Part shown: positions 2,808-23,463 of the stretch, piece by piece
Layout of the letters: each line of letters begins with the position of its first letter
Numbering within the stretch: position 1 is the first letter of the stretch
DNA from: Escherichia coli
Lineage (GTDB): Bacteria; Pseudomonadota; Gammaproteobacteria; Enterobacterales; Enterobacteriaceae
Strand: one strand, 5' to 3'
Assembly: GCF_044647545.1 (NCBI RefSeq)
Contig: NZ_CP172818.1
Length of the DNA stretch: 64,000 nt
The notes under the pieces: model-generated
What the model was told of the DNA's origin: nothing
What the model saw: only the letters and a program-made list of their open reading frames with translations
Databases searched by the model: none
Translations under genes and position numbers: made by a program

Positions 2808-5066
2808 TTACTCTTCGCTATCACCGCTGCTGGCACGGCGAGGAGAGTCGATCTCAACACGATCGATACGCTGCAAACCGCGCATCAACGTACCGCGGCG
2901 TCCACGTTCGCCAGTGACTTTCTGTAGCTCTTCCGGACGCAGTTTAATTTTGCGTTTCCCAACATGAATGGTCAGCGTGCTTTGCGGCGGCAGAACGTAC
3001 AGTTGCGCCAGACCATCCTCGCCACGCGCGGCTTCTGCCGACGGAATGTTGATAATCTTATTGCCTTTGCCCTTCGACAACTGCGGCAGATCGCTTACCG
3101 GGAACATCAACATACGGCCTGCCTGAGTGATTGCCAGCAGCATATCGGAAGCATCCTCAATCACCACCGGCGGCATAACATGGGCATTTTCCGGTAAGGT
3201 GATCAAAGCCTTACCTGCACGGTTACGCGCCACCAGATCGTTAAAGGTGCAGACGAAACCGTAACCCGCATCGGAAGCCATCAGCAGTTTCTGATCGTCG
3301 CTTTCCATCAGCATATGGTCAACGGTCGCCCCAGGCGGCAACGTTAATTTGCCGGTGAGCGGTTCGCCCTGACCACGCGCCGACGGCAGCGTAATCGGGT
3401 CGATGGCATAGCTACGACCGGTGGAATCAACAAACACTACCGGTTGGTTGCTCTTACCTTTCACCGCCGCTTTGAAGCTATCGCCCGCTTTATAATTCAG
3501 GCCCGGCGCGTCGATATCATGGCCTTTAGCGCTGCGTACCCAGCCCATCTGCGACAGCACAATGGTGACAGGTTCAGACGGCAGCATGTCGTGCTCGCTC
3601 ATCGCTTTCGCTTCTTCGCGTTCCTGCAACGGCGAACGACGTTCGTCACCGTAGGCTTGCGCGTCTGCCTGCAGTTCTTTCTTCAGCAGGTTATTCATTT
3701 TACGCTCGGAAGCCAAAATGCCCTGCAACTGGTCGCGCTCTTTTTCCAGCTCACTCTGCTCACCGCGAATCTTCATCTCTTCCAGTTTGGCAAGATGACG
3801 CAGTTTCAGTTCGAGGATCGCTTCCGCTTGGGTTTCCGTAAGGCCAAACCGCGACATCAGCGCCGGTTTCGGTTCATCTTCATTACGAATGATCTCAATC
3901 ACTTCGTCGATATTGAGAAACGCCACCAGCAAACCTTCGAGGATATGCAGGCGCTTGAGGACTTTCTCCAGACGATAATTCAGTCGGCGGCGCACGGTAT
4001 CGCGGCGGAACACCAGCCATTCGGAGAGGATTTCCAGCAGGTTTTTCACCGCCGGACGACCATCCAGACCGATCATATTGAGGTTAATGCGATAGCTCTT
4101 TTCCAGATCGGTGGTAGCAAAGAGGTGGTTCATCACCTGATCCATATCCACGCGGTTGGAACGCGGCACAATCACCAGACGGGTCGGGTTCTCGTGGTCA
4201 GATTCATCGCGCAGATCGTCAACCATCGGCAGCTTTTTGTTGCGCATTTGCGCAGCAATTTGCTCCAGTACGCGCGCACCTGAAACCTGATGCGGCAATG
4301 CGCTGATAACCACCGCGCCATCTTCTTTCTTCCAAACCGCGCGCATACGCACTGAACCACGTCCGTTCTCGTAGATTTTACGAATCTCGGCGCGCGAAGT
4401 GATAATTTCCGCTTCAGTCGGATAATCCGGCCCCTGCACGATATCCAGCAGCTGATCGAGCGTGGTTTTCGGCTGGTCGATTAATGCGATTGCCGCCTGA
4501 GCCACTTCACGCAGGTTATGCGGTGGAATATCGGTCGCCATGCCGACGGCAATACCGGTGGTGCCGTTAAGCAAAATGTTTGGCAGACGGGCAGGTAGCA
4601 TTTTCGGCTCCTGCAAAGTGCCGTCGAAGTTTGGCACCCAGTCAGCCGTCCCCTGCCCCAGCTCGCTCAATAGCAGCTCGGAATATTTCGACAACCGGGA
4701 TTCGGTGTAACGCATTGCCGCGAACGATTTCGGATCGTCCGGCGCACCCCAGTTCCCCTGACCATCAACCAGCGGATAACGGTAAGAGAACGGCTGCGCC
4801 ATCAGGACCATCGCTTCATAACAGGCAATATCGCCGTGCGGATGGTATTTACCCAGTACGTCACCGACGGTACGGGCCGATTTTTTAAATTTGGCGCTGG
4901 CATTCAGGCCCAGTTCAGACATCGCATACACAATGCGCCGCTGAACGGGTTTCAGACCATCACCAATAAACGGCAACGCACGGTCCATGATCACGTACAT
5001 GGAGTAGTTTAAGTAGGCGTTTTCCGTAAATTCATGTAGCGCAAGGCGCTCTGCCATATCGCTCAT
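2808..5066 (-). CDS. parC: DNA topoisomerase IV subunit A
   Basis: 752-aa ORF; GyrA-family N-terminal domain with QRDR motif [12 protein letters not shown]; codon 80 (4827-4829) encodes Ile. Confidence 0.95.
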
Positions 5067-5203: not shown

Positions 5204-6811
5204 TCAATGTGCCTTGATATACAACTCTTTGCTGTAGACATAATCCTGGGGATTATGCAGCGGAAAACCGCCAACGTAGGGTTTAAGCAGTTTGATTAAC
5301 GGCTGATAGTAGACAGGAATGAGCGGTGCCTGCTGGTTGATGATCACTTCGGCCTGCTGATACAACGCATTACGCTTTGTTGCATCAGCCGTTTGTGCCG
5401 CCTGGTTTAGTAAGGTGTCATACTGCGCGTTTTTCCAGTGGCCGACATTTTCCTCGCTATCGCTCTTAAGCGTGTTCAGAAAGGTGGAGGCATCATTGTA
5501 CGTCGCATCCCACGACTGCCGAGACAGCATGAAATCACCGGCTCGTCGGGCATCAAGATAAGTTTTCCACTCCATTGTGCGCAGCGTCACCTGTGCACCC
5601 AGCCATTTTTTCCATTCGGAAGACAACGCTATCGCGGTCTTTTCATGCAGATCGTACTTGTTGTAGAACAGCTCAAAGCGTAGCGGATGAGAGGCGTCGT
5701 ATCCCGCCTGTTTCAGCAAGACTTTTGCCATCGCGACGCGCTCACTCATTGGCTTTTGCAGTTCATCGAACGTCGTCGCGCTAAAGCCTTTTACCTCTGG
5801 CGGCGTCAGCGTGGTTGCGGGCGTTCTCAACCCCAGTACCTTTTGCGCAATAAGCTGTCGATCAACCGTAAGATATAGCGCCCGACGCACCCGCACATCG
5901 TTAAATGGCGGTTTCTCAAGGTTAAAGTTGTAATATTCGCTGTTCAGACGCGGAATAATTCGTAGCTCGCCAGGCAGTGATTTTTCAATGGCGGGAATTT
6001 GCTGCGCCGGAACCCAGGTGAGATCGACCTCTCCCGCGCGATAGCGGTTATAGCCGGTGACCGAATTATCCAGCGCCAGATACTCAACCTGTTGCAATAC
6101 TGTATGTTGCGCATCGCGGTACTTTGGATTTTTGCGTGCAGTAATCTTTTCGTTAACTACCCACTGATCAAGCACAAAGGCACCGTTGTAAACCATGTTC
6201 TCTGGCTTACTCCAGCTATCGCCATGTTTAGCGATGACATGATGAGGAACCGGGAACAGCGTCGGCCAGGCGAGCATCGTCGTGAACCAAGGAACTGGCT
6301 GCTCAAGCGTAACTTCAAGAGTACGATCATCCATCGCTTTGACACCCAGCGATGTAACATCTGCTTTACCCGCAACAATAGCCGCGGCATTGTTAATGTG
6401 CGCCTGTGCCAGATAGCCAGCAAAAGGGCTTGCCGTTTTCGGGTCAACCGCACGTTGCCAGCCGAGGACAAAATCCTCTGCCGTCAGAGGCTGACCGTCT
6501 GACCACTGCAAACCGCTACGTAGATGGAAAATATAGCGCTTGCCGCCGTCCAGTATCTCCCAGCATTCAGCCTGAGCGGGCTGCACCTGGCCTTCACCGT
6601 CCATCCATACCAGACCTTCAAACAGATCCAGCACAATCTGCGCGGCAGTATTCTCCTCCACCTTTTGCGGGTCGAGCGTGCCTGGGTCGCTATGATTGTT
6701 GTAACGAAAAACTTGTTGCGGGGCGAGCGGTGTGTTGGCGGGAACGTCAGCAGCGTAGAGAGGAGCCGCACTTACCAGGCTGACCAGCCATAATAAATTT
6801 CGCGTATACAT
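5204..6811 (-). CDS. ygiS: Periplasmic solute-binding protein, family 5 (oligopeptide/dipeptide-type)
   Basis: ORF 5204-6874; start placed at internal Met (6809-6811) giving 535 aa with signal peptide MYTRNLLWLVSLVSAAPLYA; SBP-5 family. Confidence 0.85.
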   Translation of the reverse strand: MYTRNLLWLVSLVSAAPLYAADVPANTPLAPQQVFRYNNHSDPGTLDPQKVEENTAAQIVLDLFEGLVWMDGEGQVQPAQAECWEILDGGKRYIFHLRSGLQWSDGQPLTAEDFVLGWQRAVDPKTASPFAGYLAQAHINNAAAIVAGKADVTSLGVKAMDDRTLEVTLEQPVPWFTTMLAWPTLFPVPHHVIAKHGDSWSKPENMVYNGAFVLDQWVVNEKITARKNPKYRDAQHTVLQQVEYLALDNSVTGYNRYRAGEVDLTWVPAQQIPAIEKSLPGELRIIPRLNSEYYNFNLEKPPFNDVRVRRALYLTVDRQLIAQKVLGLRTPATTLTPPEVKGFSATTFDELQKPMSERVAMAKVLLKQAGYDASHPLRFELFYNKYDLHEKTAIALSSEWKKWLGAQVTLRTMEWKTYLDARRAGDFMLSRQSWDATYNDASTFLNTLKSDSEENVGHWKNAQYDTLLNQAAQTADATKRNALYQQAEVIINQQAPLIPVYYQPLIKLLKPYVGGFPLHNPQDYVYSKELYIKAH

Positions 6812-6919
6812 GGTATTCCTTACCGGAGAAATTATAAGCCCAACAACAATACGCCTGTGGCATTGTTCGCTCAAACTTATCGCGAGTGATTTGGCTCACA
6901 CTCCGGTAAAGATTCCCCA

Positions 6920-7402
6920 TCACGCTAACGGTACATAAACATCCGTTTCCAGTCGCTGCTCTGTCATCCCTTCGGCAAGATTGGTGTAGTGAAACAGGAT
7001 CGGGGCTTTGCGCATTTTTTCGCCGCTTGCCGGAAGCCAGTGGCGAATGATGCCCCATATCGTGTGTGAAATATCGTCCAGCTCGCCAACATGGCGGGCC
7101 ACAGCATAACGTCCACCGGTAAGTTCACCATTACTTACGCCATAACGATTATCGGGGATCGGTTCGCTAACGCTGCCGCAGATATCAAAGCGAAACGCTT
7201 CTGGTGCGGTGGTGGCAGGGTCGTCCCAGGCGACGCCAAAAGTCTGGCTTTGGTTAACAGGAGAAAGCCCCGTCTCTTTACGCCACATGATAAATTTCGC
7301 CACGCTGTAGTTGAGCAACTCAGGGCTACAGCGGTGCGGCAACATCGCCACAGGGATTGATGGGAAATCGATAATATTTACATCCAGTGTCAGGTTTGTC
7401 AT
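6920..7402 (-). CDS. ygiV: GyrI-like small-molecule-binding domain protein
   Basis: 160-aa ORF matching YgiV from memory. Confidence 0.8.
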   Translation of the reverse strand: MTNLTLDVNIIDFPSIPVAMLPHRCSPELLNYSVAKFIMWRKETGLSPVNQSQTFGVAWDDPATTAPEAFRFDICGSVSEPIPDNRYGVSNGELTGGRYAVARHVGELDDISHTIWGIIRHWLPASGEKMRKAPILFHYTNLAEGMTEQRLETDVYVPLA

Positions 7403-7454: not shown

Positions 7455-7847
7455 TTACGGATTTACTTTGCGGATCTGTTTGACGTCAATTTCAACAGAG
7501 TTCCAGTCTTTATCGACTTCACCCTGAATCTCAACCGTATCTTTCGGCGTCACCGTCACGCCGTTCCAGCGTTTGTGATCGATATCCACATTGATAGTAC
7601 CGCTGGCATCTTTGAACACGTAGAGATCGTCAGAGATGCGTTCAACGATATTGCCGCGCAGGGTTACCCAGGTGTCGTCACGCAGGGATTTTGCGCTTTC
7701 TACGGTCGTTACGCTGCCGTTCGGCCCCTGGAATCCTCCGGCCTGACTTTGTGTTGCCGATGGGCCAGAAAAACCTCCCTGCTCTGCTGCCATAACCGGT
7801 GCACTGCACAGGGCCATTACTGCGATTACTGCTGCGAATTTTTTCAT
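7455..7847 (-). CDS. ygiW: BOF/YgiW family periplasmic OB-fold stress protein
   Basis: 130 aa from Met at 7845-7847 (signal peptide MKKFAAVIAVMALCSAPVMA); the longer 149-aa frame is an in-frame upstream extension. Confidence 0.85.
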   Translation of the reverse strand: MKKFAAVIAVMALCSAPVMAAEQGGFSGPSATQSQAGGFQGPNGSVTTVESAKSLRDDTWVTLRGNIVERISDDLYVFKDASGTINVDIDHKRWNGVTVTPKDTVEIQGEVDKDWNSVEIDVKQIRKVNP

Positions 7848-10382: not shown

Positions 10383-10735
10383 ATGTTAGCACTCTCTAAA
10401 AAAGTCCAGTCGGAGATTTGGTTTTCAACCCCCATAAATCTATTTAAAATAATCTGCGTAACACGCTGATATTTTCATTTTTAGTTATTCAACACCACAA
10501 TTATCAACTCGCAGAAAGTCCACACCAACGTTGTAAATTAACCCTGTGCTAGTTGGAATGATGAGAAATTGCTATCAGTATTGTCATTTTCAGAAAATAT
10601 TTATCCCGCATCGGTGAATCAGAGCAAGATCAGACTTTTGCTAAATTCGCAAAAGACTTTGCACATTTTGCTAATTTCACCGTACCGCTCTGTGACGTAC
10701 TATAGTCGGCAAACGTCTCACCTTGAGGTTAAAAA

Positions 10736-11347: not shown

Positions 11348-11662
11348 ATGATTACAGTAATCGCAGAAATCCGTACTCGTCCTGGTCAACATCACCGTCA
11401 GGCAGTGTTGGATCAGTTTGCTAAAATCGTTCCAACCGTACTGAAAGAAGAAGGTTGCCACGGCTATGCGCCAATGGTGGATTGCGCTGCTGGCGTGAGT
11501 TTCCAGTCTATGGCACCGGATTCTATCGTGATGATTGAGCAGTGGGAAAGCATCGCGCATCTTGAAGCGCATCTGCAAACCCCGCACATGAAAGCATATA
11601 GCGAAGCCGTAAAAGGTGACGTGCTGGAGATGAATATTCGTATCCTGCAGCCGGGGCTTTAA
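11348..11662 (+). CDS. ygiN: ABM-domain quinol monooxygenase
   Basis: 104-aa ORF 30 bp downstream of mdaB, preceded by aggag SD. Confidence 0.9.
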   Translation: MITVIAEIRTRPGQHHRQAVLDQFAKIVPTVLKEEGCHGYAPMVDCAAGVSFQSMAPDSIVMIEQWESIAHLEAHLQTPHMKAYSEAVKGDVLEMNIRILQPGL

Positions 11663-11709
11663 TCCTGCCTTGTTTGCCCGGCCATCCTGACCGGGCAATG
11701 TTCTTTCCT

Positions 11710-13605
<1,896 letters not shown>

Positions 13606-19787: not shown

Positions 19788-19802
19788 GCTATCCCCTTTT
19801 TT

Positions 19803-19957
19803 CTAACACCACAATACCCCCCCACCACAAAACAAAAAAAACAAAAAAAAAAAAAAAAAAAAAACAAAAAAAACAACCAAAAAAAAATAAACAAAACCAA
19901 AAAAACAAATCCCAATACCCGAGGCACTCGCCATCCGGTTTAAAAAAAAAAAAATTA
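19803..19957. repeat. Low-complexity A/C-rich tract containing an A22 homopolymer (19843-19864) and an A13 run (19942-19954)
   Basis: Between 19811 and 19910 the top strand is almost exclusively A and C; non-coding, sits between the convergent ygiC and ygiD stops. Confidence 0.9.
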
Positions 19958-23178: not shown

Positions 23179-23463
23179 ATGATTGACCCGAAAAAAATTG
23201 AGCAAATCGCTCGCCAGGTTCACGAATCAATGCCTAAAGGAATCAGGGAGTTCGGGGAAGATGTGGAGAAAAAAATCCGCCAAACCCTACAAGCGCAGCT
23301 GACGCGTCTCGATCTGGTAAGCCGCGAAGAATTCGACGTTCAGACGCAAGTCCTGTTACGGACTCGTGAAAAACTGGCGTTACTGGAGCAGCGCATCAGT
23401 GAACTGGATTTGAAAAAACCAACACAAAAACGGGCCAGACGGCCCGTAATATCAGTGTTCTAA
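23179..23463 (+). CDS. ubiK: Ubiquinone biosynthesis accessory factor UbiK (YqiC, BMFP coiled-coil family)
   Basis: 94-aa product from ATG 23179 ([16 protein letters not shown]...), SD caggga upstream; the 114-aa frame is an upstream extension. Confidence 0.8.

Follow-up and report, generated by a model that had tools for sequence, protein, structure and literature searches.

The 108 bp that separate ygiV from ygiS in the window (by which we mean the whole 64,000-nucleotide stretch of Escherichia coli DNA analyzed here) are very probably the original Escherichia spacer, never occupied by a toxin–antitoxin (TA) pair, and it would be the K-12 arrangement that arose later, by insertion of a 927-bp mqsR-mqsA cassette. 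Calling mqsRA present or absent is a matter of structural comparison, not of a statistical signal. According to the ORF list, the minus strand of the window carries parC (2808-5066), ygiS (5204-6811), ygiV (6920-7402), and ygiW (7455-7847), with qseB and qseC lying beyond ygiW on the plus strand. Both neighbors of the spacer are intact: ygiS encodes a 535-aa ABC-transporter substrate-binding protein and ygiV a 160-aa AraC/GyrI-like regulator, as in the RefSeq annotation of FDAARGOS_497, in which the gene ends are the same as those of the window and the stretch is identical base-for-base over 1,201 bp. The spacer at 6812-6919 is exactly 108 bp long, bounded by the ATG with which ygiS starts (6809-6811) and the TGA with which ygiV ends (6920-6922), both on the minus strand and taken from the sequence and the ORF list. 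The first-pass annotation had described a gap of about 108 bp with no ORF here; neither mqsR nor mqsA is found in it. No ORF in 6812-6919 would fit an MqsR-family RNase toxin of about 98 aa, and an adjacent gene for an MqsA antitoxin of about 131 aa, with a zinc-ribbon N-domain and an HTH-XRE C-domain, is not found in the window. Two mechanically called ORFs overlap the spacer (6810-6938 on the plus strand, 42 aa; 6747-7058 on the minus strand, 103 aa), and we rejected both as genes, as they are out-of-frame overlaps of the neighboring genes with no support.

The comparison with K-12 fixes the site of the difference to the base. Gene order in K-12 is ygiS-mqsA-mqsR-ygiV, and ygiS and ygiV are therefore not adjacent there; the statement in the first-pass annotation that mqsRA lies between the two genes in K-12 is right, and its proposal that the present strain has no mqsRA at this canonical site is borne out by the alignment and by the read-out of the junction. 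Positions 6700-6912 of the window align to the K-12 locus (L001:1901-2113) with a single mismatch, the leftmost 101 bp of the spacer being identical, and homology returns at position 6918 of the window (L001:3041). Between these two blocks, pairwise alignment shows five bases in the window, TTCCC (6913-6917), where K-12 has the 927-bp mqsRA cassette (L001:2114-3040), at a point 2 nt from the ygiV stop codon on its downstream side. The window thus reads GGTAAAGA, then TTCCC, then CATCACGC, and K-12 reads GGTAAAGA, then 927 bp, then CATCACGC.

From the ygiS side, the K-12 cassette holds the mqsA terminator hairpin, mqsA, mqsR, the promoter, and about 150 bp of upstream DNA with another hairpin. 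The mqsRA promoter contains two ACCT-AAA-AGGT palindromes (L001:2869-2885 and 2901-2917), and the GC content of the cassette is 41.1%, as against 52-53% in ygiS, in ygiV, and over the entire window. What would have entered 2 nt downstream of the ygiV stop codon, replacing TTCCC, is thus a self-contained module of low GC content that brings along a promoter with two MqsA operator palindromes as well as a terminator. A search of the cassette ends for a target-site duplication or flanking direct repeats, for microhomology, and for terminal inverted repeats found none, and given the lack of such repeats, the mechanism can be named only as illegitimate insertion or replacement.

The direction of the change is given by the outgroups. 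A scan with YgiV of species-representative genomes yielded loci from five Escherichia lineages other than E. coli (E. albertii, E. whittamii, and three more). At each of these loci, ygiS or what remains of it comes directly after ygiV, with no match to MqsR or MqsA. The three lineages that retain an intact ygiS have spacers of 108-110 bp, which are colinear with the window through the insertion point, TTCCC-like bases included. A gap of about 108 bp between ygiV and ygiS, colinear with that of other Escherichia species through the point at which K-12 has its insertion, is what an ancestral spacer should look like, and it is what the window has. Since a deletion would have to recreate the outgroup sequence exactly, the empty spacer is the ancestral Escherichia state rather than the outcome of a loss, and K-12 has the derived state. 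That the strain "lacks" mqsRA, as it was first put, therefore holds for the site, but not in the sense that something was lost, as the empty site is both the ancestral and the majority state. As a separate observation, ygiS itself survives only as fragments beside ygiV in the non-coli Escherichia MOD1-EC7003 and E1V33 (L004:4553-4922 and L006:3713-4140); the gene has been lost repeatedly in the genus, while the ygiV-proximal end of the spacer persists.

How common each state is within the species can be seen from 5,426 complete E. coli genomes. The 927-bp cassette was found by megablast in 2,299 of them (42.4%), always on the chromosome and always at an identity of at least 99%, and the empty junction, for which we used a 160-bp probe across the insertion point, in 3,123 (57.6%), the probe matching as one uninterrupted piece. 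The two states are complementary and mutually exclusive, and together they account for 5,422 of the 5,426 genomes. CFT073, JJ1886, NC101, and O157:H7 are among the strains with an empty site, and the window is one more member of this allele class. We infer a single gain and a horizontal origin for the cassette, which would now reside in a set of related E. coli backgrounds (going by published tables, phylogroups A and C and some of D) and would never have reached the lineage of the window (ST648-like, phylogroup F), nor B2, E, or most of B1. In three carriers, comparison with K-12 gave flanks no less similar than the cassette, and the high identity of the cassette consequently does not help to date its arrival. 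The idea of a recent sweep, which would have left the cassette more conserved than its flanks, likewise allows no inference, with flanks equally close to K-12. One carrier, NZ_CP042934.2, was left out as a marker of phylogroup D; it has genes for an Hcp-family type VI secretion effector and a hypothetical protein between ygiZ and mdaB (L011:10399-11591), which are absent from both the window and K-12.

It could be argued that the ancestor of the present strain did carry mqsRA at this site and later lost it through a clean deletion. TA cassettes are known to decay or to be lost in E. coli (PMC7167474), and decayed copies of this cassette do exist: an IS1 insertion splits mqsR in strain 203740 (NZ_CP025913.1), and in strain JNEC-KY203 (L012:6429-6719), mqsR is annotated as a pseudogene without its N-terminus, next to an intact mqsA. 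However, the deletion would have had to take exactly 927 bp and to recreate TTCCC as it stands in E. albertii and the other outgroups, no remnant of the cassette is left in the spacer or elsewhere in the window, and every one of the 3,123 empty junctions (3,123/3,123) is matched by the 160-bp probe without interruption. We regard a secondary loss as close to refuted, and read the site as one that was never occupied.

A different possibility is that mqsRA, or a functional equivalent of the same family, sits outside the window, only 64 kb of the genome being visible. Relatives of MqsR with 61-67% identity are indeed found on plasmids of Rahnella, Pectobacterium, Herbaspirillum, and others, but these plasmid-borne relatives are almost all in other genera, no copy of the cassette was detected by megablast on E. 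coli plasmid records, and no match to MqsR was found in phages. Within the 64-kb window, tblastn with K-12 MqsR gave no homologue (best E = 7.5), and with K-12 MqsA, the best hit (E = 1.6) covered 42 residues at 11444-11569 and is unrelated to the locus. The MqsA operator pattern ACCT-N2-4-AGGT occurs once in the 64 kb (10720-10729), against 1.3 occurrences expected by chance, and not at all in the spacer. For the remainder of the chromosome, we turned to the best-matching public chromosomes, searching them by sensitive blastn with a chimeric query that joined a 3-kb window marker distant from the locus to the K-12 cassette. FDAARGOS_497 and 58 of the 59 other best-matching chromosomes were hit in a single place, the marker. 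The search for mqsR and mqsA elsewhere in the genome, which the first-pass annotation had named as a check, thus returned no cassette-like DNA from the nearest public chromosomes. In both the 64-kb window and the closest public chromosomes, mqsRA is absent elsewhere at the DNA level, down to about 65-70% identity; a very divergent pair of the MqsR family, carried by a plasmid or prophage of the strain itself, would escape such searches. The complementary counts (2,299 + 3,123 = 5,422 of 5,426) also argue against further copies of the cassette in empty-site genomes.

Published data on the lineage agree with this. The nearest relatives of the window are ST648-like (phylogroup F); IMT16316, which is among the top matches, is an ST648 strain (PMC6003029), and ST648 belongs to phylogroup F (PMC10790755). 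In those rows of the HMM-based File S3 of the latter study on which we draw here, MqsR_toxin is scored 0 in 10 of 10 ST648 rows. The same portion of File S3 gives a score of 1 for the rows of ST10, ST48, ST410, and ST405 and for most rows of ST167 and ST69, and a score of 0 for three of four ST38 rows and for the B2 sequence types, ST11, the B1 sequence types, and ST117 (PMC10790755). Taken with the searches above, relocation of the pair appears very improbable, and a genome in which the site was never filled is again the reading we retain.

The window does, however, depart from its relatives at several places outside the locus, and this bears on how far it can be trusted as a copy of a natural genome. 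It is 99.8-100% identical to ST648-like genomes in blocks, yet it is colinear with none of its best 25 matches. At 11661-11713, the window has the short ygiN-parE intergenic sequence of the K-12 and O111 type, whereas the best 25 matches, with flanks 100% identical, have a 7.3-kb siderophore-uptake island there, which encodes a TonB-dependent receptor and an iron-siderophore ABC transporter along with a MurR/RpiR regulator. Also absent from the window is the 3.7-kb assT-dsbL-dsbI cluster that ST648-like genomes with 100% identity have between ygiC and ygiD, and between the same two genes, at 19788-19954, the window has 167 bp of A/C-rich low-complexity DNA with long poly-A runs. The dinucleotide entropy of this stretch is 1.1, compared with a window mean of 3.75, and it is the only such stretch in the 64 kb; it includes a damaged copy of a K-12 hairpin, CCGGATGGCACTCGCCATCCGG, in a place where K-12 has 37 bp, and the 167-bp sequence itself was not found in K-12 or ST648. 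At 23409-23411, the last 64 bp or so of ubiK, which all close relatives have, are missing, with a few bases in their stead and a changed UbiK C-terminus. Finally, positions 1-348, upstream of ftsP, hold the 5' end of ygiQ as in K-12 and O111, whereas FDAARGOS_497 has a gene for a TRAP-transporter permease there, which is absent from the window.

These non-colinear places look like an artefact of assembly, consensus building, or editing, and they slightly weaken trust in the window as a faithful copy of a genome; the stretch at 6812-6919 is unaffected, being identical to natural genomes. That the cassette itself went missing from a mis-assembled, reference-guided, or edited sequence could draw on the two absent islands, the 64 bp of ubiK, and the A/C-rich filler at 19788-19954, but with a locus that FDAARGOS_497 matches over 1,201 bp and an empty junction shared by all of the closest relatives and 3,123 complete genomes, it can practically be dismissed.

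The same interval has a third allele. In O111:H2 12A, a single-copy filler of 236 bp (L002:5765-6000) replaces most of ygiS, corresponding to positions 5246-6789 of the window. It occurs in 1,357 of the 5,426 genomes (25%), O26:H11 11368 and O111:H2 12A among them. In O111:H2 12A, the one filler locus that we examined in detail, mqsRA is absent as well; if all 1,357 filler genomes were of the empty-site type, the allele of the window, with an intact ygiS and no cassette, would be left with about 1,770 genomes (33%). The filler shows a 93% match to a region annotated in one genome as a group II intron maturase domain and has no Rfam match; it is probably a 3' remnant of a group II intron.

A further question is whether the spacer has a role of its own. 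Between the window and E. albertii, the spacer is 92.6% identical, compared with 86-87% in the coding DNA alongside (about 87% in each of the two genes, and 71% in ygiS if third codon positions alone are counted). A minus-strand transcript of the spacer has a predicted minimum free energy of -48.3 kcal/mol (z = -4.73), and none of 200 shuffled sequences folded as well. A repeat search recovered a 17-nt imperfect inverted repeat (82% complementary) that closes the entire spacer: in RNA terms, its 5' arm (6901-6917, minus strand), also seen in the fold, lies directly after the ygiV stop codon, and its 3' arm (6812-6828, minus strand) lies just upstream of the ygiS ATG and covers the ygiS Shine-Dalgarno sequence TAAGGA (6822-6817). 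In the predicted fold, the bases behind the ygiV stop codon are paired with the ygiS Shine-Dalgarno sequence and start codon. The point at which the mqsRA cassette entered in K-12 coincides with the outer base of this stem; the inner stem is still present there, immediately behind the mqsA terminator. The closing stem could shut off translation of ygiS on read-through transcripts from ygiV, and transcripts that start at a promoter inside the spacer would escape it.

A perfect TATAAT hexamer can be read from the sequence at 6831-6836 (minus strand), inside the loop of the stem and at a distance of 19 nt from the ygiS ATG on its upstream side. It is invariant in seven Escherichia sequences and might serve ygiS as the -10 box of a promoter for which no good -35 element is seen. 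A consensus scan of the spacer called no promoter, the TATAAT included, and a terminator scan of the spacer gave one weak terminator-like hairpin, at chance level. The spacer has no Rfam match, and compensatory changes were seen at 0 of 47 predicted pairs among seven sequences whose mean identity of 94% makes them too similar to decide the matter. We think that the spacer probably still does a job of its own in holding the ygiS promoter and leader; the stronger proposal that it is a functional RNA or DNA element (a ygiS leader or an insulator) and not plain intergenic DNA is a reasonable one, though rather improbable.

An empty mqsRA site is not in itself a novelty. It is an already known and common accessory-gene polymorphism, and the lineage-specific distribution of MqsR has already been tabulated (PMC10790755). 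According to a review of the field, chromosomal type II TA systems belong to the accessory genome, and the strains MG1655, W, EDL933, and UTI89 do not have a single TA system in common (PMC7167474; for TA presence and absence, the review cites Fiedoruk 2015, Ramisetty and Santhosh 2016, and, on ccdO157, Mine 2009). An adherent-invasive (AIEC) B2 strain has been explicitly reported to be without MqsRA (PMC7232551). The first-pass annotation had considered that the absence bears on persistence and biofilm phenotypes attributed to MqsR, and here its relevance is weak: the roles of MqsRA in persistence, biofilm formation, and stress are disputed, an independent study having failed to reproduce them (PMC6918082; PMC7167474); the same goes for the claimed role with deoxycholate, and the study also warns that deletions of mqsRA may have polar effects on the downstream ygiS (PMC6918082). 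At this locus, K-12 is the one in the unusual state, as MqsRA is missing from about 58% of sequenced E. coli, major pathogenic lineages (B2, E, F, and most of B1) among them, and phenotypes that have been ascribed to MqsR in K-12 can therefore not hold for the species in general. This lack of generality was already evident from published surveys, and with the phenotypes themselves in dispute, it matters little. A departure from K-12 does not yet amount to a finding, and the state in the population and in outgroups is to be checked first.

Three comparisons place the locus among known systems. Next to the K-12 mqsR-mqsA locus (ygiU-ygiT, b3022-b3021), it has the same flanks (parC, ygiS, ygiV, ygiW, qseB, and qseC) in the same order and orientation, with DNA identities of 97.6% in ygiS and 95.9% in ygiV and of 96-99% across the flanks overall; what differs is the 927-bp cassette, in whose place the window has TTCCC. 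Next to the empty-site alleles of B2, E, and F strains (CFT073, JJ1886, NC101, O157:H7, the ST648 strain IMT16316, and FDAARGOS_497), there is no material difference, the junction being 95.6-100% identical over the 160-bp probe and ygiS and ygiV being annotated as adjacent in those genomes. Finally, mqsRA resembles the other accessory chromosomal type II TA cassettes of E. coli in being a small, self-contained intergenic module of low GC content between core genes, present like them in some phylogroups only, a likeness that we draw from a review (PMC7167474) and from the counts made here; the window shows the unoccupied state alone.
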